The position numbers were made by a program, and so were the translations under genes. A stretch of DNA of 58,382 bases, filler included, from Sandaracinaceae bacterium (GTDB lineage Bacteria; Myxococcota_A; Polyangia; Polyangiales; JADJQN01): NCBI GenBank assembly GCA_947483975.1. It is 4 parts of 4 records of this genome, joined end to end, with 100 filler letters (N's around TTAATTAATTAA, not from the genome) between each part and the next. Parts side by side here need not be neighbours in the genome. Positions count along the whole stretch, not along the records: positions 29,473 to 43,931 come from CANKOL010000110.1; 3 more parts are not named here. One strand, 5' to 3'. Positions 14,647 through 58,382 of this stretch are shown here, piece after piece. Below the pieces are notes generated by a model. It saw only the letters and a program-made list of their open reading frames with translations, was not told where the DNA came from and did not search any database. Position 1 is the first letter of the stretch, and each line of letters opens with the position of its first letter.

Positions 14647-14746
14647 NNNNNNNNNNNNNNNNNNNNNNNNNNNNNNNNNNNNNNNNNNNNTTAATTAATT
14701 AANNNNNNNNNNNNNNNNNNNNNNNNNNNNNNNNNNNNNNNNNNNN
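14647..14746. other. Artificial contig spacer (44 N + TTAATTAATTAA + 44 N)
   Basis: Six-frame-stop linker; the identical 100-bp structure occurs three times. Confidence 0.99.
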
Positions 14747-29372: not shown

Positions 29373-29472
29373 NNNNNNNNNNNNNNNNNNNNNNNNNNNN
29401 NNNNNNNNNNNNNNNNTTAATTAATTAANNNNNNNNNNNNNNNNNNNNNNNNNNNNNNNNNNNNNNNNNNNN
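29373..29472. other. Artificial contig spacer
   Basis: 44 N + TTAATTAATTAA + 44 N. Confidence 0.99.
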
Positions 29473-29702: not shown

Positions 29703-30965
29703 GTGAGCCGCCCCTCGCACGAGATACCGTCGCCGCCGACGCACTTCGGCCCCTACGAGATCGTCGCGCGCGTCGCGGCCGGCGGGATGGCCGAGGTGTA
29801 CGCGGCGCGCTCGCGGGACCCGCAGGGCATCGACAAGCTCGTCGCGATCAAGCGCCTGCTCGAGCACCTCGTCGACGAGCCCCGCTTCGTCGAGATGTTC
29901 CTCGACGAGGCGCGCATCGCCGCGAACATCCACAGCCCGCACTGCGTCGAGACGCTCGATCTCGGCCGCGCGGACGACGGGATGCCGTACCTCGTGATGG
30001 ACCTCGTCGTCGGCGCGCCGCTCTCTCGCCTCGCCGCGCGCGTCGACGGCCCGTGGCCGCCCGCGATGGTCGGCGTGCTGCTCGCCGAGGCCGCTGACGG
30101 CCTGCACGACGCGCACGAGGCGCGCGACGCGAACGGCATCGAGCTGCACATCGTGCACCGCGACGTCTCGCCGCAGAACGTCCTCGTCGGCATCGACGGG
30201 CGCGTGCGCATCGCGGACTTCGGCGTCGCGCGCGCCGTGATGCGCATCACCAAGACCAAGACCGGGCAGATCAAGGGCAAGCTCGGCTACTTCTCGCCCG
30301 AGCAGGCGATGGGCACCGAGCTCGACCGGCGCTCGGACATCTTCTCGCTCGGCATCGTCGCCTGGGAGCTGCTCGCGGGGCGGCGGCTCTTTCGCTCGAA
30401 GCAGCTCCTCGAGATCTACAAGAAGATCGTGCTCGAGGAGGTGCCGTCGCTCCTCGAGGCGGCGCCGCACGTCCCGCCCGCGCTCGCCGACGCCGTGATG
30501 GTCGCGCTCCGCCGTGACCCCGCCGAGCGCTACCCCGACGCCTCGAGCTTCGCGGATGCGCTGCGCGCCGCCGCGAGCGAGACGGGGCGCCTGCCCAACA
30601 ACGACGAGATCGCCGACTTCGTGTGGCGCTACGGCGGCGAGCAGGTCGGCGCGCTCGTCCGCGCGATCGAGCGCAGCGACACGGGCCTCAACCGCGCCGA
30701 CACGCGCGCGATGCTGCAGCTACCGCCGAGCCGCGACGCGATGATCGACGTGCCGACCGATGAGCAGATGACGCGCATCAACGAGCGCACCGACGGCGGC
30801 AGCGACTCGGCGTCGCAGCCGTCCCTGCCGACGGTGTTGCGTAGCGGCCCCGCGAGCGGCGTCGAGGTCAGCGCGCAGCAGCCGCGGCAACAGCCCGCAG
30901 CGCCCGTGAAGACTGGCGTCTTCGAGCGCTTCTCCGACTGGCTCACGCGGCTGTTCGGCGGTTGA
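29703..30965 (+). CDS. Cytoplasmic Hanks-type Ser/Thr protein kinase
   Basis: AGGMAEVY, VAIKR, MFLDEAR, HRDVSPQN, DFG, KGKLGYFSPEQ, DIFSLG; no transmembrane helix. Confidence 0.92.
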   Translation: MSRPSHEIPSPPTHFGPYEIVARVAAGGMAEVYAARSRDPQGIDKLVAIKRLLEHLVDEPRFVEMFLDEARIAANIHSPHCVETLDLGRADDGMPYLVMDLVVGAPLSRLAARVDGPWPPAMVGVLLAEAADGLHDAHEARDANGIELHIVHRDVSPQNVLVGIDGRVRIADFGVARAVMRITKTKTGQIKGKLGYFSPEQAMGTELDRRSDIFSLGIVAWELLAGRRLFRSKQLLEIYKKIVLEEVPSLLEAAPHVPPALADAVMVALRRDPAERYPDASSFADALRAAASETGRLPNNDEIADFVWRYGGEQVGALVRAIERSDTGLNRADTRAMLQLPPSRDAMIDVPTDEQMTRINERTDGGSDSASQPSLPTVLRSGPASGVEVSAQQPRQQPAAPVKTGVFERFSDWLTRLFGG

Positions 30966-31094
30966 AATGAACGGTGGATTCTCGGCGGAGGCGCGAGCCC
31001 ATACACGCCCGAGAGGAAGTCGTCACCCGTCCTGAGCTGCGCTCGGCGCCCACAGGCTTCTACGAACCATCTATTCAGCCGGGTGAGAGAGTCC

Positions 31095-32246
31095 ATGCGT
31101 ATCCAGCAAGTCGTGATGAAGAAGTTCCCCGCAGACCTCGCCCAGCTGCAGACGCTGCACGACCTCGCGCCGCAGTTGCTCCTGGTGTTCGCCAGCCCGG
31201 TCCACTTCTCCGACGGGCAGCTGACGCAGGCGCTGCTCGAGCGCTTCCCTCAGGCGCAGCTCGTGGGCTGTTCCACCGCGGGCGAGATCTCGCAGCAGGG
31301 CGTTGAAAATGGCAGCGTCGTCGTCACCGCGCTGCACTTCGAGAGCGTGCAGTTTCGGGTCGTGAGCACGGAGCTGACCGCGATGGAGGGCTCGTTCCAG
31401 GCTGGCGCAGCGCTCGCGCAGCAGCTCGCGGGCTGGGAGCCGAAGGCGGCGCTCGTGCTGGGGCAGGGCGTGAACATCAACGGCAGCGCGCTGATCGACG
31501 GCATGGTCAGCTTGCTAGGGTCGGCGCTGCCGATCGTGGGCGGCCTGGCGGGAGACGACGCCGCCTTTCAGAAGACCTTCACGCTGTGCAATCAGGGGGC
31601 GTCGTCCACGCGCGTTCTGGCGCTCGGGCTCAGGGGCGAGGCCCTGCGGTTTGCGCACGGCTGCTTTGGCGGCTGGAAGCCGTTTGGCCCCGTACGCAAG
31701 GTCACGCGCAGCGTGAACAACGTGCTGTACGAGCTCGACGGCAAACCCGCGCTCGAGGTCTACAAGCGCTACCTCGGCGAATACGCCAAGGACCTGCCGG
31801 GCTCGGGGCTGCTGTTCCCCTTCGAGATGCTCAGCGGGGCGCGCGAGCCCTCGGGCCTGATCCGCACCATCCTGGGTGTGAACGAGGCAGACGGCAGCGT
31901 GACGCTGGCCGGCGCCATCAGCCAGGACGGCTATCTCCGCTTGATGCACGCCCAGACCGACGCCCTGCTCGACGGCGCCGAGGAGGCGGCGCGCGCCACC
32001 CTCGCGGGGCTGCAGCAAGACGGCGCGCCGGGCCTGGCGCTGCTGGTCAGCTGCGTCGGACGCAAGCTCGTGATGGGCGGGCGCGTGGATGAGGAGATCG
32101 AGGTCGTGCACGACACTCTGGGGCCGCAGGCGACGCTGGCCGGCTTCTACTCCTATGGCGAGATCAGCCCCGGCAACGGCCTCCAAGAGTGCCAGTTGCA
32201 CAACCAGACGATGACCATCTCCTACCTGGGTGAGTCGGCCGGATGA
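31095..32246 (+). CDS. FIST N/FIST C domain protein (NosP-like sensor)
   Basis: GCSTAGEI, GGLAGD, GGWKPFGP...VT.S..NVLYELDG.PAL, VSCVGRK, GFYSYGEI, LHNQTMT. Confidence 0.9.
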   Translation: MRIQQVVMKKFPADLAQLQTLHDLAPQLLLVFASPVHFSDGQLTQALLERFPQAQLVGCSTAGEISQQGVENGSVVVTALHFESVQFRVVSTELTAMEGSFQAGAALAQQLAGWEPKAALVLGQGVNINGSALIDGMVSLLGSALPIVGGLAGDDAAFQKTFTLCNQGASSTRVLALGLRGEALRFAHGCFGGWKPFGPVRKVTRSVNNVLYELDGKPALEVYKRYLGEYAKDLPGSGLLFPFEMLSGAREPSGLIRTILGVNEADGSVTLAGAISQDGYLRLMHAQTDALLDGAEEAARATLAGLQQDGAPGLALLVSCVGRKLVMGGRVDEEIEVVHDTLGPQATLAGFYSYGEISPGNGLQECQLHNQTMTISYLGESAG

Positions 32247-35200
32247 CCCACAAGCTGCTCCAGCGCCAACTCAAGCGCTCGCTGGGCGTCGCCGACGAAG
32301 CAGAGCTCGCCCTGCTGCTGGCCGAGCTGCAGACGCTGGCTCAGCGCAGCGAGCTGTCGCCTTTGGCGCAGCGCAGCCTGTGCGGGCTCGAGTTCTTTCT
32401 CGTTCAGGTGGACGAGGCCTATGTTCAAGGCGAGCGCGCGCTCGGCTTGAGCACGCGCAGTCTGGAGCTGAGCTCGGACGAATTGAGCCAGGCCAACGAG
32501 GACCTGCGCGAGCAAGCCGCGACGCGCGAGCTCGCGCTCAAGACCTTGAGAGTCACGACGAATCAGCTGTTGGAGCCGCTGGGGCAACACATCGGCGAGG
32601 ACGATCAGAGCCTCGGCCGCCTGACGCAGTTGTTGTCCGGGCTGGTGCGCGACTTCTTGGAGACGCGAAAGAGCGCGGAGTCGTCGTATGCCAAGCTGCA
32701 ACATCAGCAGTTTGCGCTGGACCAGCACGCCATCGTGAGCATTACGGACAAGGCTGGTCGAATCCTGTACGCGAACGAGAAGTTCTGCAGCATCAGCAAG
32801 ATCTCCTACGACGACCTGATCGGCAAGGACCATCGCGTCGTCAACTCCGGGCTGCACAGCAAGGAGTTCTTTCGCGAGATGTGGAGCACCATCTCCAGCG
32901 GCAAGGTCTGGCACGGCGAGATAAGAAACCAGGCCTCAGACGGCACCATTTACTGGGTCTCAGCGACCATCGTGCCTTTTCTGGATAGTCAACAGCAGCC
33001 TTATCAGTACATCTCGCTGCGCACCGACATCACCGCGCAAAAGGCGATGGAAGCCGAGATCGTCTCTCGCGGCCGCATGCTGGAGAACATCATGGACACG
33101 CTGGGGGAAGGCGTCTATCTCCTGGACAGTCAGGGCGTCTGTACCTACGCGAACCGCGAGGCGGAGTCGCTGCTCGGGTGGAGCCGGGAGGAGATGCAGG
33201 GCCAGGTGTTGCACGACCTGATCCACGCCAACCCCGCTGACGGCAGGGCGCTGCCACGAAGCGAATGCGCCATGCAGGTGCGCACCCAGCAGAGTGAGGT
33301 GTACCGCTCCGAAACGGAGGTGTTCACGCGCAAGAGTGGTGGGCAGTTTCCCATCGCGATCGTCGCGGCGCCCATCATCGAGAGCGGGCAGGTCACCGGA
33401 TCGGTCGCCGCGTTCCAGGACATCAGCGCCCGCAAACGCACCGAGGAGGACCTGCGCCAAGCCGACGTCAAGCAGCGCATGTTGATCGACAACGCCGCCG
33501 ACGCCGTGCTCATTCTGGGCAGCCGAGGCGAGCTGATGTACGCGAATGAGCTCGCCATCAAGTTGCTGGGTTACTCGCACGCTGAGCTCCTGGGCGTCTC
33601 GATCTTCAGTCTGCTCCCGGGCTCGTTCCGCGAGCTGTACGACCAGACCCTGAGCCATGAGCTGGGCAAGACGCGACGGCTGCACACCGAGGTCCCGTTC
33701 ACCCACAAGGACGGCCACGAGATCCCCTTGGAGTTGAACGCAGCTGTGCTGCCGGACGGCAATGTCTATGTATCGTGCCGCGACATCACCCTCCGCAAGG
33801 AGGTCGAGAACCAGCTGTTGCGGGCCAAAGAGGCAGCCGAGGCCACGAGCAAGGCCAAGAGCGACTTCCTCGCCACGATGAGCCACGAGATCCGCACGCC
33901 GATGAACGGCATCATCGGCATGACCGATCTCGCGCTCGAGACTCAGCTCGACGCCGACCAGCGCGACTACCTGGGGCTCGTGAAGTCGTCCGCTGATTCG
34001 CTGCTGACCATCATCAACGACATCCTCGATTTCTCGAAGATCGAGTCCGGAAAGCTGGAGCTGGAACAGGTCGAGTTCGACCTGCGCTCGCTGCTGACGG
34101 CGACCACCAAGGTGCTCGCCGTGCACGCCGAGCAAAAGGGCATGACGGCGCTCTACGAGGTCGAGGAAGGCGTCCCCGAGAGCCTGCTGGGTGACCCCGG
34201 ACGGCTGCGCCAGGTGTTGACGAACCTGCTGGGCAACGCGTTCAAGTTCGCTGACCGCGGTGAGGTCTCGGTGCGCGTCAAGACACTCGCGCTCCAGGGG
34301 AGCCGAGTGGTCCTGGGTTTCGAGGTGCAAGACGAGGGCATCGGCATCGCCAGCGACAAGTTGGCCAGCATCTTCGAGGTCTTCACCCAGGCCGACACCT
34401 CGACGACGCGCAAATATGGTGGCACCGGCCTAGGGCTGGCCATCTCCAGCCGACTCGTGGCGGCGATGGGTGGGCGACTCTCGGTCAAGAGCGCGCTTGG
34501 GACTGGCAGCGTATTCAGCTTTGATGCCGTGTTCGCGGTCGCCGAGGCCGGGCAGAGGGGCGCTTCGACGGAGGCGCTCCACGGCCGCGACCTCGGCGTG
34601 CTGAGCCGTCTCCACGAGCCCCTCGATCAGAGGGAGTTGTCCGCTGTCGTGGGCGTCGCCCCGGGCGCGCAGTCGGAGGTCGCGCTGAGCACGCAGGAGA
34701 AGCTCCCGGACGGGCCATCGCAGCAGGCGCTACACATCCTGCTGGCGGAAGACAACGCGGTGAATCAGAAGCTGGCGCTGACGCTGCTCGCCAAGTGGGG
34801 ACACAGGGTCGCCGTGGTGTCGGATGGCCTGCAGGCGGTCGAGCAAGCGCGGCAGCAGCACTACGACGTGATCTTGATGGACCTGCAGATGCGCGAGATG
34901 GGCGGCCTGGAGGCAACGCGGCTGATCCGGGCGCGTGAGGCAGCGTCAGGGCGGCACACGCCGATCGTGGCGCTGACGGCCAACGCGATGAGCGAGGACG
35001 AGCAGCGCTGTCTGGACGCGGGCATGGACGGCTATCTGTCCAAGCCGCTGAGCGCCAAGCGCCTGCGGGAGCTTTTGGCCACCATCCCCGCGAGCGCGCC
35101 GCCCGCGTCCCTGCCGCACAGCGTGCCTGAGGCGCCGTTTGATTATGCCGGGGCGTTGGCCAGCGCCGACCCTTGGGTGGTCGAGACCATCGGCCAAGCC

Positions 35201-35467
35201 TTTCTGGACGACTGCCCGCGGCAACTCACGGAGATCAAGAGCGCGATCGAGGCCTCAGACGCGCCGGCTCTCATGCGCGCGGTCCACACGTTTCGCGGAC
35301 TGGTCGGCAATTTCAACGCCCAGCGCGTCGAGAAGCTGGCGCGCGAGCTCGAGCATCTCGGCCGCGCGGGCGACCTGATCCACGCGCACATCCTCTTCAG
35401 CCAGATGGAAGACGAGATGCAGGCACTCAGCTTGGCGCTCGCTCGGACGCTGGCGGCGCTGCCGTAG
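32243..35467 (+). CDS. Hybrid sensor histidine kinase: 3 PAS, HisKA, HATPase, REC, Hpt
   Basis: H-box [16 protein letters not shown]-box [35 protein letters not shown]...LMDLQM...KP; Hpt AVHTFRG; ATGA coupling to the FIST gene. Confidence 0.93.
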
Positions 35468-38687: not shown

Positions 38688-39575
38688 TCAAGCCCCGCGC
38701 AGCTTGCCGAGCACTTCGTCGAGCCGGCTCGCAGCGACGCTGACGCGCGTCGGCATCCCGCCCTCGATGCCGAGGAGCGCGAGCAGATCGACGCCGCTGT
38801 CGAAGCGCGCCGCCGCCGTCACGCTCGCGTCGTCGTGCACGACGCTGATGCGCGCGCGCTCTTGCCCGAGCATCAAGAGCAGCGTCTTGTCGTAGGACGA
38901 GCCCGCGAGCCCGCGCGTGTCGACGACGGCGAGGCCGTGCTCGACGACGTACTTGCGCGCGAGCTGCCGCGCCTCGTCCTCGAGCGCGCGCACCTCGTCG
39001 GCGATCTTGCGCAGGTCCGCCCAGAGCCCGCCGTCCTCCGCGCCGCCCGCGAGAAAGCGCACGATCAGCCCGCGCAGCCCGTCCTCGCGAGGGCGCGCGC
39101 GGATCGCGCGGTCGATCACCGCGGCGCGCTCGCTCGCCGTGCCGAGGCGCGTGTCGATCGCGTGCGCGTCGGCGTCTGCGCCCGCGTACGGCTCGACGCC
39201 GCCGCGGATCCACTTGGCCGCGCAGCAGAGCCCGTCGAAGTCCGTGTGACAGACGATCGAGTCGATCAGCCCGGTGTCCGCGACGAGCGCCGGCGTGACC
39301 ATCTCGGGGCACGCGCCGTGCTCTGCCTTGGTCGCGAGCACGAAGCGCGGATCGTGCGCGTATTCGGCGTGCAGCACGTGATCGTGGTGATCGACCCAAC
39401 GCGCGAGGCGCGCCCCGAGCCCGTCGATGAACGGCTTGGTCGTCTTCACGAAGCTCGCGCCGCCCGTCCCCGCGGCGAAGGCGATGTCGAGCACCACGAC
39501 GCGACCGGGGACGTCCTTCGCCTTCGGGAGCTTGCGCGGCGAGGCGTAAGCGAGAAACGGAAAGCGCTGCGTCAT
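38688..39575 (-). CDS. Putative DHH-superfamily phosphoesterase with rearranged motif order
   Basis: VVVLDIAF, WVDHHD, CHTDFDG, AIDTR, and a small C-terminal domain containing GG. Confidence 0.65.
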   Translation of the reverse strand: MTQRFPFLAYASPRKLPKAKDVPGRVVVLDIAFAAGTGGASFVKTTKPFIDGLGARLARWVDHHDHVLHAEYAHDPRFVLATKAEHGACPEMVTPALVADTGLIDSIVCHTDFDGLCCAAKWIRGGVEPYAGADADAHAIDTRLGTASERAAVIDRAIRARPREDGLRGLIVRFLAGGAEDGGLWADLRKIADEVRALEDEARQLARKYVVEHGLAVVDTRGLAGSSYDKTLLLMLGQERARISVVHDDASVTAAARFDSGVDLLALLGIEGGMPTRVSVAASRLDEVLGKLRGA

Positions 39576-39680: not shown

Positions 39681-40451
39681 ATGTGCGGTCGCTTCTCGAC
39701 GAACACGAGCCTCGGCTCGCTGCTGACGCTGCTCGGCGTCGATGGCGCCGCGGTGCCGCTGTCCGACCTGATCGCCGCGCGCGACGATGTCCGCCCGAGC
39801 GAGCCGATCGCCGTCGTCGCCAACCGCGTGACCGACGCGGCGCACCCGCGGCACGTCGAGCTGTTCACCTGGGGCCTCGTGCCGTTCTGGTCACGCGGTC
39901 GGGCCGACGCGCCGCGCCCGATCAACCTCCGCGCTGAGACGCTCCTCGAGCGCCGCTCGTTCCGTAGCCTGCTCGTGCGGCAGCGCGCGCTCGTGCCCGC
40001 GGCGGGCTTCTACGAGTGGAAGAAGCCCGAGAGCGCCGCGAAGAGGGCGAAGAAGACGCCGTACTTCCTGCACCGCGCCGATGGGCAGCCGATGGCGCTC
40101 GCCGCCGTGTGGGAGACGCAGACGGATCCCGACACCGGCGCGCGCACGCAGACCTGCGCCCTGATCACGACGGAGCCGAGCGCCGAGGTGCGCGAGGTGC
40201 ACGACCGGATGCCGGTGCTGCTCGAGCCAGCGCACTTCGAGCGCTGGCTCACCGCGAACGACGCCGAGCCCGAGGCGCTGCGCGCGCTGCTCCGCCCCGC
40301 TCCCGACGGCACGCTCGCGCTCGAGCGTCTCGCCGCTTCTCCCGGTCAGCCTGCGCAACCCGCCTCGCCTGCTGCGCCCGCCGCACAGCTAGGCCTCTTC
40401 GACACCCAATCCTTTACGTCGCGCAAGGGATCGCGATACTCGCGCCCCTGA
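39681..40451 (+). CDS. SOS response-associated peptidase (SRAP/YedK/HMCES family, abasic-site processing)
   Basis: N-terminal MCGRF, WGLVPFW, IN.RAET, GFYEW, HDRMPV. Confidence 0.92.
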   Translation: MCGRFSTNTSLGSLLTLLGVDGAAVPLSDLIAARDDVRPSEPIAVVANRVTDAAHPRHVELFTWGLVPFWSRGRADAPRPINLRAETLLERRSFRSLLVRQRALVPAAGFYEWKKPESAAKRAKKTPYFLHRADGQPMALAAVWETQTDPDTGARTQTCALITTEPSAEVREVHDRMPVLLEPAHFERWLTANDAEPEALRALLRPAPDGTLALERLAASPGQPAQPASPAAPAAQLGLFDTQSFTSRKGSRYSRP

Positions 40452-43931: not shown

Positions 43932-44031
43932 NNNNNNNNNNNNNNNNNNNNNNNNNNNNNNNNNNNNNNNNNNNNTTAATTAATTAANNNNNNNNNNNNN
44001 NNNNNNNNNNNNNNNNNNNNNNNNNNNNNNN
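43932..44031. other. Artificial contig spacer
   Basis: 44 N + TTAATTAATTAA + 44 N. Confidence 0.99.
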
Positions 44032-56900: not shown

Positions 56901-58382
56901 TCAGAGGTCCGTGATGCGCAGTTCCACCGCGTCGCCGCCGCGCCAGGTGTCGGGGCGGAGGCTGCCGACGATGTCGATCTGCCCCTGCGCGGCGCCGAGG
57001 CGTCCCGCGAGATCGAAGCCGAACGCCTCGATCGACGTGCGCCCGCAGCGCAGCGAGAGCTTGAGGTGCCGCTCCTGCACGACCGACGCGCGCAGCACCT
57101 TCACGCCCGGCAGCGCGAAGAGCGGCTCCTCGTTGCCACAACCGAGCGGCTCGAGCATCGCGAGCTCGCGCGCAGCCGGCACCGTGAACGTGCTCCCGTC
57201 GAGCGTCACGTCGATCGGCGTCTCCGTCTGCGTCAGCCCGTGCCTCGCCGACACCGCGCGCACGGCGTCGTCGAACGACGCGCGCAGCGCCTCGACCCGC
57301 GACGCGCGCACGGTGAGCCCGGCGGCGGCTTGATGCCCACCGAAGCGCTCGAGCTCCGAGGCGCACGCGCTCACCGCGTCGAACAAGCGAAACCCGTCCG
57401 GCGCGCGACAGCTGCCGTGCCCGATGCCGTCGTCGATGCCGACGACGACGACGGGAACGGCGAAGCGCTCGACGAGCCGCGCCGCCGTGATGCCGACGAC
57501 GCCGCGGTGCCAGCCCTCGCCCGCGACGACGACGCCCGCGCTCGGATGCTCGCCGTAGACCTCGAGCGCCTGCGCGATCGCGGCCTCCGTGACGGCGCGC
57601 TCCACCTGCTTGCGCTCCTCATTGAGCAGGTCGATCTTCGCGGCGAGCGCGCGCGCGAGGGTCGGTGTGCGCGCGCGCAGCAGCTCGAGCGTCACGGTCG
57701 GATCCCCGAGGCGCCCCGCCGCGTTGAGGCGCGGCGCGAGACGAAACGCGACATCGATCGCGCCGAGCGGCGTGCCCGCCCTGACCCGCGCCACCTCCCG
57801 CAGCGCGACGATGCCCGGGCGCGCATCCGGGAGCGCGAGCTGCGCGAGCCCCGCGCGCACGAGCCTGCGATTGTCCCCATCGAGCGGCGCGACGTCCGCG
57901 ATGGTGCCGAGCGCGACGAGGTCGAGCCACGGGCGTAGATCGAGCTTCTTGCCGAGCGCCGCGCGCACCGCCGCCCCGAGCGAGAACGCGAGCCCCGCGC
58001 TCGTCAGATGCTTGTACGCAAAGCCGCACTCGGGACGGTGCGGGTTGAGGAACGCGAGCGCGGGCAAGGGCTCCGCGGGGACGAGGTGATGATCGACGAC
58101 GATGACGTCGAGCCCCTTGGCGCGCGCGGCGGCGATGCGCGGGTGATCGCTCGAGCCGCAATCGCACGTGACGAGGAGCTTCGCGCCGGTGTCGAGCACG
58201 CGCGCGAGCGCCTCCTCCGAGAAGCCGTAACCGCCCGAAAAACGGCTCGCGACGAGCGCACAGACCTCGCCGCCGAGCGCCTCGAGGACGTCCGCGAGGA
58301 TCGCTGCGCTCGTCGTCCCGTCGACGTCGTAGTCGCCGAAGATGGCGATGCGCTCGCCCGCGCGGACGGCGCGCGCGAGGCG
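56901..58382 (-). CDS. recJ: Single-stranded-DNA-specific exonuclease RecJ (5' end lies beyond the window)
   Basis: IFGDYDVDG, EGYG-like GGYGF, TCDCG, VVDHH, NPH, LGTIADV.PL...NR, PRLNAAGR, WH.GVVGI.A.R, FGGH.AAAG. Confidence 0.95.
   Translation of the reverse strand, partial: RLARAVRAGERIAIFGDYDVDGTTSAAILADVLEALGGEVCALVASRFSGGYGFSEEALARVLDTGAKLLVTCDCGSSDHPRIAAARAKGLDVIVVDHHLVPAEPLPALAFLNPHRPECGFAYKHLTSAGLAFSLGAAVRAALGKKLDLRPWLDLVALGTIADVAPLDGDNRRLVRAGLAQLALPDARPGIVALREVARVRAGTPLGAIDVAFRLAPRLNAAGRLGDPTVTLELLRARTPTLARALAAKIDLLNEERKQVERAVTEAAIAQALEVYGEHPSAGVVVAGEGWHRGVVGITAARLVERFAVPVVVVGIDDGIGHGSCRAPDGFRLFDAVSACASELERFGGHQAAAGLTVRASRVEALRASFDDAVRAVSARHGLTQTETPIDVTLDGSTFTVPAARELAMLEPLGCGNEEPLFALPGVKVLRASVVQERHLKLSLRCGRTSIEAFGFDLAGRLGAAQGQIDIVGSLRPDTWRGGDAVELRITDL

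Follow-up and report, generated by a model that had tools for sequence, protein, structure and literature searches.

A probable DHH/DHHA1 phosphoesterase of Polyangia with a permuted order of catalytic motifs

The closest described relatives of the protein reported here are DHH/DHHA1 phosphoesterases, namely the stand-alone nanoRNases and pApA phosphodiesterases NrnA, Pde2, DhhP and Rv2837c, and MtPAPP, the DHH-family PAP phosphatase of Methanothermococcus thermolithotrophicus (structure 8a8k). According to its description (PMC10322725), the ligands of MtPAPP are H6, D8 and D10, D57, H76 and H77, and D127, and a linker occupies residues 181-210. Our protein, P0001, is encoded in the window, the whole stretch of 58,382 nucleotides of Sandaracinaceae DNA that was analysed, and it carries the four DHH motifs in the order II-III-I-IV; the order I-II-III-IV was not found in it. 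We conclude that the changed order is a real REARRANGEMENT (a cyclic rotation of the core), on four independent lines of evidence, and that P0001 descends from the DHH/DHHA1 phosphoesterases, with MtPAPP and NrnA as the nearest described enzymes. In our judgement P0001 is very probably a permuted yet intact DHH/DHHA1 phosphoesterase.

The window consists of four joined contig pieces separated by spacers with paired runs of 44 N (14647-14746, 29373-29472 and 43932-44031). It derives from a metagenome-assembled genome of 524 contigs that is 81% complete, and features on different pieces are not neighbours. The P0001 gene lies on the third piece (G000:C110). Its open reading frame shows a GC content of 0.78, 0.51 and 0.88 at codon positions 1, 2 and 3 in a 70%-GC genome, a pattern typical of coding sequence, indicating a real gene. 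A longer reading frame starting at 39854 was rejected because homologues begin at the Met at 39575. The features of the gene, and of the RecJ gene that served for comparison, are as follows.

38688..39575, minus strand: coding sequence of the 295-residue permuted DHH/DHHA1 protein P0001, stop codon included, from translation; the M1 start fits the homologue alignment
39540..39557, minus strand: strand a, residues 7-12, the first strand of P0001 (DSSP of the model)
39486..39500, minus strand: motif II, VVVLD with the invariant D30, which falls in the column of the relatives' motif II Asp, itself aligned with NrnA motif II
39384..39392, minus strand: motif III, D62-H63-H64, invariant; hhalign pairs residues 61-93 with NrnA 107-133
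39201..39269, minus strand: relocated strand-helix unit, residues 103-125, carrying motif I (invariant ligands, profile of canonical-order relatives, fragment model)
39231-39248, minus strand: motif I, HTDFDG, that is H110-x-D112-x-D114-G115, invariant
39153..39170, minus strand: motif IV region, D136 to D141 (ADAHAID), both Asp invariant; the D141 codon is 39153-39155
38958..39032, minus strand: long linker helix between the domains, residues 182-206 (DSSP of the model)
38691..38957, minus strand: DHHA1-like C-terminal domain, residues 207-295 (VIA-align matches to C-Ala/DHHA1 domains; G273 invariant)
38745-38762, minus strand: GGMPTR in place of GGGH, inside the DHHA1-like domain
56901-58382, minus strand: RecJ, cut by the window end, on the fourth piece, with GDYDVDG, TCDCG, VVDHH, TIADV and GGHxAAAG in this order

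A preliminary description of this DNA had listed the four motifs of P0001 in the order II-III-I-IV, motif IV as AID, and had taken RecJ of the same window as an internal control for the canonical order. Both readings hold at the positions above, with AID ending at D141, though the RecJ gene stands on a different contig piece. The same description saw in the C-terminus a shrunken DHHA1 lid lacking GGGH. The GGGH motif of DHHA1 is indeed not found in P0001, and GGMPTR stands at the equivalent place, GGMPxR being the counterpart of GGGH; the domain is, however, not much shrunken (89 residues versus 105 in 8a8k). In two relatives with canonical motif order, L144 and L148, GGGH is present at that site.

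To define the fold, the full protein was modelled with AlphaFold2 on a 34-sequence alignment (mean pLDDT 95.6, pTM 0.92). The model comprises an alpha/beta domain with strands at residues 7-12, 26-29, 57-62, 78-80 and 106-110, the helix 182-206 and a second alpha/beta domain, 207-295. Foldseek against PDB counted 24 matches at E <= 1e-3, and every one listed is a DHH/DHHA1 protein, including the PAP phosphatase 8a8k, PggH, GdpP, NrnA/Pde2, Rv2837c, DhhP, family II pyrophosphatases, NrN and RecJ. VIA-align, run against 48,161 representative chains, gave 8a8k as the best match (Z 13.1, 243 residues aligned, root-mean-square deviation 4.3), followed by RecJ, GAN, NrnA, GdpP and Cdc45 at Z 7.6-11.8 (RecJ, NrnA, GdpP and PggH at Z 9.9-11.8). 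Altogether, 19 DHH-superfamily entries matched at Z 8.3-13.1 over model residues 1-295, showing that the protein has the DHH, linker and DHHA1 fold. The next fold classes fall below Z 7: C-Ala/DHHA1 domains on residues 195-295 (Z 5.4-6.9) and Rossmann-like domains on residues 14-125 or beyond, those on 14/15-125 being seven FNR-type domains plus a HAD, a TrkA and a GT-B domain. The model is wholly covered by the DHH, linker and DHHA1 parts; at 295 residues, no RecJ-type OB fold or further C-terminal domains were found in it.

Comparison of 34 aligned members of the family, down to 29% identity, showed that P13, D30, T46, D62, H63, H64, F78, H110, D112, D114, G115, G126, D136, D141 and G273 are invariant in all 34, indicating that the motifs are under selection and are not chance strings. 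The metal ligands of motifs I-IV (H110, D112 and D114; D30; D62, H63 and H64; D141) are all present among these columns. Such conservation bears on the idea that P0001 is a non-catalytic scaffold with a DHH fold, like eukaryotic Cdc45. Cdc45 and GAN structures do match the model, at Z 7.6-9.8; Cdc45, however, has lost its metal ligands, and all seven canonical ones are invariant across the 34 sequences, making a scaffold the least credible of the alternatives considered here, and one that we regard as extremely improbable.

We then asked where the structural alignments begin. Alignments of the full model start at model residue 1-3 and yet inside the target chain: at residue 23 of 8a8k, 26 of 7d62, 39 of 5o1u, 45 of 8iu7 and 98 of 2zxo. 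With 8a8k the aligned range is 23-315 and H6, D8 and D10 are skipped, the start past these residues indicating that the canonical motif I strand is left unaligned. In the same alignment ranges, model residue 1-2 is paired with chain residues past motif I, so that strand a corresponds to the strand after helix 1 in the canonical fold. Residues 100-295 were also modelled alone, on 36 aligned sequences of this region taken from related loci (pLDDT 94.7); removal of the N-terminal strands leaves a sequential aligner free to place the internal unit. Residues 4-196 of this fragment model aligned with 8a8k residues -1 to 311 (187 aligned, root-mean-square deviation 3.7, Z 11.3), and this register, if the first residues are ungapped, pairs H110, D112 and D114 with H6, D8 and D10.

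The same behaviour was observed in 11 further DHH-superfamily structures, in which the start of the aligned chain moved upstream by 23-37 residues from the full to the fragment model: 5o1u from 39 to 9, 7d62 from 26 to 3, 8iu7 from 45 to 14, 2zxo from 98 to 64, 7bhi from 61 to 27, 4py9 from 49 to 17, 8y30 from 104 to 68, 7ykv from 49 to 21, 4ls9 from 65 to 36, 9r7o from 39 to 9 and 6cc2 from 48 to 11. The exceptions are 5xsi (GdpP), against which the fragment covers model residues 40-196, and 8ioo, with 96-196; in both the internal unit is not included. On the frame shared by both models (motif IV helices, linker and DHHA1), the internal unit is predicted to stand where the canonical fold has its strand 1 and helix 1.

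Relatives with the canonical order provide evidence at the level of sequence. A metagenome scan with the subfamily alignment returned 41 loci, of which 22 are permuted like P0001, 18 are canonical in order and one is truncated. In the 18, the homologous unit (VAHGDLDGIISA) is N-terminal and the internal site is gapped: VAHGDLDGI(I/V)SA stands ~75 residues before DHH, and a gap of ~35-45 columns falls at the site of the P0001 unit. P0267, from among the family representatives, is a further case of canonical order. A hidden Markov model (HMM) of 13 canonical-order relatives matched all 11 permuted proteins tested, with full-sequence E values of 3e-11 to 2e-54, and in each of the 11 the N-terminal profile positions 6-38 fall after the DHH segment in the same register (i-E 4e-6 to 0.02 for the module). 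In P0001 (E 8.6e-39, homologous over the whole length), profile positions 57-129 match residues 25-101, positions 10-27 match residues 107-124 (i-E 9e-4) and positions 127-287 match residues 135-293. The order of units is accordingly I-a-II-III-d-IV-linker-DHHA1 in the canonical-order relatives and a-II-III-d-I-IV-linker-DHHA1 in P0001. Only one strand-helix unit has changed place, so that the alpha/beta core is in effect circularly permuted, and all other parts remain collinear with ordinary DHH proteins.

The correspondence of the P0001 ligands to the NrnA motifs runs through these same relatives. Pfam DHH matches 12 of 12 of them from profile position 1-5 (E 6.7e-7 to 0.031, one above the gathering score), and hhalign aligns them collinearly through motifs I-IV with a Myxococcota NrnA alignment (E 4.1e-5, probability 70%, 133 columns). 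By this route the family's DAxAxDTR aligns to NrnA AivtDTG, identifying D141 (AIDTR) as the canonical motif IV Asp. Three points weigh against the permutation as we read it. That the ligands converge on one site is read from alignment ranges and not from measured distances; the fragment was modelled in isolation from the other strands of the sheet; and the permuted family compared directly with a 30-sequence Myxococcota NrnA alignment gave weak hhalign results (E 0.027 and 0.35). The two best pieces of this weak comparison, DHH to DHH and the internal HxDxDG to motif I, point the same way as the route through the relatives.

It could be argued that, once the N-terminal unit had been lost, the internal HxDxDG unit arose independently, either by convergence or as an insert derived from a different gene, or that it sits outside the canonical slot. 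The module match is short (18 residues, i-E 9e-4 for P0001), and no intermediate with two intact copies was found among the relatives, one doubtful remnant apart. Against this, the match recurs in 11 of 11 permuted proteins in the same register, the following helix (SAAKW versus ISAVL) lies inside it, and with the fragment model the unit falls on strand 1 of the canonical fold in 12 structures of the DHH superfamily. The Rossmann-like matches on model residues 14/15-125 fit a strand order d-c-b-e, with strand 106-110 beside 26-29, the topologies of those folds being taken as we presume them to be. We therefore regard an independent origin as highly improbable and favour relocation of the original motif I unit.

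To our knowledge, motif I comes first in all other DHH families, and for this reason the permuted form is most likely the derived one. The permuted order would result if the core was partly duplicated in tandem and the redundant parts were then lost; no form with two intact motif I units was seen among the relatives examined. One canonical-order protein (L145:351-1403) carries VINGDFNCPEMRW at the internal site, which could be a decayed second motif I unit or an accident of alignment, and is doubtful.

The preliminary description had proposed a rearranged DHH phosphoesterase, belonging to no characterised family, whose predicted structure would not align collinearly with a known one. The DHH/DHHA1 fold, the relocated motif I unit seen both in structure and against the canonical-order relatives, and the full-model alignments that start past the canonical motif I agree with it, and so do the database searches: P0001 gave no Pfam or NCBIfam match even at E 10 and no meaningful PDB sequence match, the best PDB match of the A1 profile being an unrelated exopolyphosphatase (E 0.17). 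A Pfam scan of 34 permuted members yielded one match to DHH (PF01368), at E 0.21, and no match to DHHA1 (PF02272), none reaching the gathering cut-off. A lead to DUF6687 (Atlas score 0.88) was unsupported, in that the same scan gave it no backing; literature searches, which left most subscription journals outside their coverage, found nothing relevant on DUF6687. In searches of the same coverage we found no description of a permuted DHH enzyme, so that a prior description is possible.

The family is large. Among 8000 candidates scored, 5190 clusters at 90% identity matched at E 1e-3; all of those named by their source are hypothetical proteins, and the taxa, where given, are Myxococcota or Sandaracinus, the family being present in Sandaracinus amylolyticus. 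An exhaustive search of representatives at 50% identity gave 321 at E <= 1e-3, 216 at E <= 1e-10 and 75 at E <= 1e-30. HxDxDG follows DHH by 45-53 residues in 120 of the 120 closest clusters and in 72 of the 150 listed 50%-identity representatives. The other 78 comprise one with the motif before DHH, 29 that have DHH without HxDxDG and 48 without a W.DHH pattern, most of these last 77 being fragments. A pattern scan with a 12-row alignment, using one genome per species, confirmed a relative in at least 545 of 600 stretches examined, and the best 80 loci were kept for context counts. Record titles of these 80 name Polyangia, Myxococcota or, under the older name, Deltaproteobacteria in 77 cases; the remaining three are Longimicrobiales, Proteobacteria and an uncultured bacterium.

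To learn about the role of the family, we examined its genomic distribution. In one sample the gene was present as a single copy in 34 of 34 genomes of the same order and in 4 of 4 other genomes of the same class, and a search of 162 genomes from the other classes of Myxococcota did not detect it. In a second sample, spread across the class, 26 of 41 genomes carried it as a single copy (5 of 5 in its own order, G000 included, and 21 of the 36 others), indicating that the family is characteristic of a large subclade, not of Polyangia as a whole. Of the 15 genomes that lack the family, 13 yielded a canonical NrnA, and the remaining two are 83% complete and 2.3 Mb; of the 26 family-bearing genomes, only 12 yielded one and 14 did not. 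Seven family-bearing genomes of this sample yielded neither NrnA nor Orn. Among the NrnA-less genomes, G010 and G226 show one weak DHH match only. The genome of P0001 itself also keeps a canonical NrnA (L003:514-1494), so P0001 is not an NrnA orthologue.

Neighbouring genes point to adenine nucleotides. Among the 79 related loci with at least 1.2 kb of downstream sequence, 30 have an adenosine deaminase gene (PF00962, E 5e-99) as the next gene downstream, on the same strand; among all 80 loci, 45 have one within 6 kb. In 23 of the 80 loci a gene for an ammonium transporter is found within ~330 nucleotides, divergent and upstream in 21 cases and a short way downstream, in the same orientation, in two. 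From this context we infer a Mn-dependent phosphoesterase acting, like NrnA, on nucleotides or short oligonucleotides, and the evidence leans to adenine nucleotides or very short oligonucleotides as substrate. Several observations pull the other way. Six of the 14 NrnA-less genomes carry, besides RecJ, another weak DHH gene (35-44 bits in a family-level search); the sampled genomes are interrelated, so that the counts of complementarity with NrnA are not independent; and CysQ-like proteins (40 of 41 genomes) and diadenylate cyclase (DAC, 38-39 of 41) are near-universal and do not discriminate between functions. Moreover, the P0001 gene is monocistronic in the window, flanked by a SRAP gene that is divergent and by a chalcone-isomerase-like gene that is convergent, and the adenosine deaminase gene of its own genome is on another contig. 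The specific NrnA-like role, as read from context, is close to evenly balanced, at best; the two claims taken jointly, a permuted DHH/DHHA1 phosphoesterase with an NrnA-like role, we consider likely.

Many genomes of the class contain a third kind of DHH-domain gene, distinct from RecJ, canonical NrnA and the permuted family, which scores 30-44 bits on Pfam DHH in open frames of ~390-470 residues (for example G002:C67:12713-13150, G207:C15:209883-210308 and G215:C350:1432-1860).

The adenine-nucleotide context would also suit turnover of a second messenger, with P0001 as a stand-alone phosphodiesterase of DhhP/Pde2 type for c-di-AMP or pApA, or, in relatives fused to Cas10, for cyclic oligoadenylates. 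GdpP, PggH, DhhP, TM1595 and Pde2 are among the best structural matches, a DAC domain scores above cut-off in 38 of 41 genomes of the class, which would then need a phosphodiesterase, and some relatives form the N-terminal 300 residues of type III-D Cas10 proteins; the link with adenosine deaminase agrees as well. DAC is, however, equally present in genomes without the family and shows no specific co-occurrence, and P0001 has no sensor or membrane domain. Moreover, the proposal overlaps with an NrnA-like role, because Pde2 and NrnA enzymes cut pApA too. We consider second-messenger turnover unlikely, and prefer the NrnA-like role.

The Cas10 fusions were found in 16 of the 41 metagenome loci, two of the reading frames being cut by a contig end; they include those of L118-L125 and L127-L133 (an example is L123:5998-8676). 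In these proteins of ~870-910 residues, permuted relatives with all ligands kept make up the first ~300 residues and the rest is Cas10 (Cas10d-like; PADLOC Cas10 at E 3e-68 from residue 309; Pfam palm2). Genes for Csm3/Cas7 and Cas5-IIID/Csx10 follow (L123:8676-9389 and L123:10045-11754 in the example), and a ParA-like ATPase gene and a ribbon-helix-helix gene precede. Judged by gene content, these loci look like a type III-D CRISPR effector with the permuted domain in place of HD. No description of a Cas10-DHH/DHHA1 fusion was found in literature searches that mostly excluded subscription journals.

A domain at the usual place of the HD DNase domain raises the alternative of a RecJ-like exonuclease for single-stranded DNA or RNA, acting in repair or defence. 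RecJ cores match the model at Z 10.6-11.8, and the neighbour of P0001 in the window is a SRAP DNA-damage protein. P0001 has, however, the size of NrnA (295 residues) and carries neither an OB fold nor any other extension for binding nucleic acids; its genome also encodes a canonical RecJ, and SRAP is not a conserved neighbour, being found in 0 of 80 related loci. A RecJ-like function is, in our view, quite improbable, more so than second-messenger turnover.

Fusions of the permuted domain to radical-SAM/SPASM enzymes, in proteins of ~612-648 residues with the radical-SAM/SPASM enzyme C-terminal, were observed in P0198, P0211, P0215, P0219, P0241 and L135:5989-7890. A second radical-SAM gene lies near the last of these, and the fusions have a weak similarity to the pVip radical-SAM models of PADLOC (E 6e-9) that is probably generic. 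In P0138 (436 residues), a representative that has the first ~200 residues of the family joined with a TIR_2 domain (E 3e-7), the combination may be a true fusion or an artefact of assembly or frameshift. Downstream of canonical-order relatives we found a protein of ~510 residues with a C-terminal LigT-like 2H phosphoesterase domain (L144:1860-3374, L148:6846-8372 and L150:3656-5200), and in two loci SmpB adjoins them (L151:5649-6110 and L155:4202-4663); these neighbours hint at metabolism of RNA ends or 2',3'-cyclic phosphates. The Cas10, radical-SAM, LigT-like and SmpB contexts all concern the chemistry of nucleic-acid or nucleotide phosphoesters.

We propose the following mechanism. The motif I unit has moved from the N-terminus to a position between the strand-helix that follows DHH and the motif IV helix, with all canonical ligands kept. 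The relocated strand would fill the same central slot of the parallel sheet, adjoining the D30 strand, and the model suggests that D30, H63/H64, H110/D112/D114 and D141 form the usual two-Mn site facing the DHHA1 lid. By analogy with 8a8k, the first Mn2+ may be held by D112, D114, D30 and D141, with H110 nearby, and the second by D114, D30, D141, H63 and H64. By way of the linker helix, the DHHA1-like domain would close on this site, the GGMPxR loop presumably holding the substrate. The job of the enzyme could then be hydrolysis of adenine nucleotides or very short oligonucleotides (pAp, pApA, nanoRNA, 3'-nucleotides), the products feeding adenosine deaminase. A wider history can be offered tentatively, with somewhat less confidence than the role itself: a DHH lineage underwent a natural circular permutation, and the form spread and became fixed as a single-copy housekeeping enzyme in much of Polyangia, able to replace NrnA. 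It was also recruited, in this account, as the N-terminal nuclease or phosphodiesterase domain of type III-D Cas10, for HD, and fused to radical-SAM/SPASM enzymes.

These results have consequences in several fields. For annotation, more than 5,000 clusters, hypothetical wherever named, can be labelled DHH/DHHA1 phosphoesterases. A permutation of one strand defeats profile HMMs (a meaningful Pfam match in 0 of 34 permuted proteins versus a DHH match in 12 of 12 canonical-order relatives), so that a large conserved myxobacterial family has been hidden from standard annotation because its first catalytic strand moved to the middle. For protein evolution, both arrangements within one homologous family offer a clean natural system for the rewiring of a buried catalytic strand. 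In physiology, the enzyme is a candidate for turnover of nanoRNA, pAp or pApA in Polyangia genomes without Orn and canonical NrnA, and the permuted domain heading type III-D Cas10 suggests an effector activity of CRISPR systems not yet described.

The surroundings of the P0001 gene in the window are poorly conserved and offer no hint of its function. The SRAP gene is given in the first line below, together with the other features of this contig piece that were noted.

39681-40451, plus strand: SRAP (SOS-response-associated peptidase), divergent from the P0001 gene
38547-38566, plus strand: one terminator-like site, inside the chalcone-isomerase-like neighbour
29703-30965, plus strand: Ser/Thr kinase, upstream of the next two genes and on the same strand
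31083-32246, plus strand: FIST-domain protein, overlapping the start of the next gene by 4 nucleotides
32243-35467, plus strand: hybrid histidine kinase of 1074 residues (three PAS, receiver, Hpt)

The SRAP, chalcone-isomerase-like and DUF1801 genes and two unknowns of 262 and 253 residues recur in 0 of 80 related loci, and the acyltransferase and the 603-residue protein of the window recur in one only (L005). In this closest related locus an acyltransferase_3 gene lies directly upstream of the homologue and SRAP is missing, so that SRAP was apparently either inserted here recently or lost there. Rfam detected no RNA family in the window, a promoter scan found none near the P0001 gene, and PADLOC has no model for P0001. 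The kinase and FIST genes form an ordinary myxobacterial signalling cluster.

Comparison with known systems places P0001 among several DHH proteins. The canonical-order relatives (type N: L138-L155, for example L143:227-1114, and P0267) share with it the QPF strand, the D-I-A-V-N-N form of motif II, W-x-DHH, DAxAxDTR and GG/SGAPFR. They differ in having motif I N-terminal, no internal unit and a collinear Pfam DHH match (12 of 12), in coming from low-GC metagenome contigs (27-39% GC for the seven listed) and in adjoining a LigT-like 2H phosphoesterase or SmpB, not adenosine deaminase. The RecJ core, in the RecJ of the window and in Thermus RecJ (2zxo/1ir6), has the same DHH and DHHA1 fold (Z 10.6-11.2), whereas its motif order is canonical and RecJ proteins are of ~570 residues or longer, with an OB fold and further domains. 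NrnA, Pde2, DhhP and Rv2837c resemble P0001 in size, domain plan and ligands (Z 9.1-10.3), and the P0001 family is partly complementary in distribution to canonical NrnA of the same class; P0001 differs from this group by its order II-III-I-IV, by GGMPxR for GGGHxxAAG and by the lack of a Pfam DHH or DHHA1 match.

MtPAPP is the best structural match of both models (Z 13.1 for the full model and 11.3 for the fragment), with a sequence identity to P0001 of only 12-15%. According to its description (PMC10322725), it too consists of a DHH domain of ~180 residues, a linker helix and a DHHA1 domain, in this order, its motif I is likewise of the type H-x-D-x-D (H6/D8/D10, as H110/D112/D114 in P0001), and it is too divergent for sequence alignment with other DHH proteins. 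According to the same source, its motif I stands at the N-terminus and pAp is its proven substrate, whereas the role of P0001 is deduced from context, and DHH is separated from motif IV by 50 residues, against 77 in P0001 (H64 to D141). This difference in spacing fits a unit of ~23-25 residues inserted in P0001.

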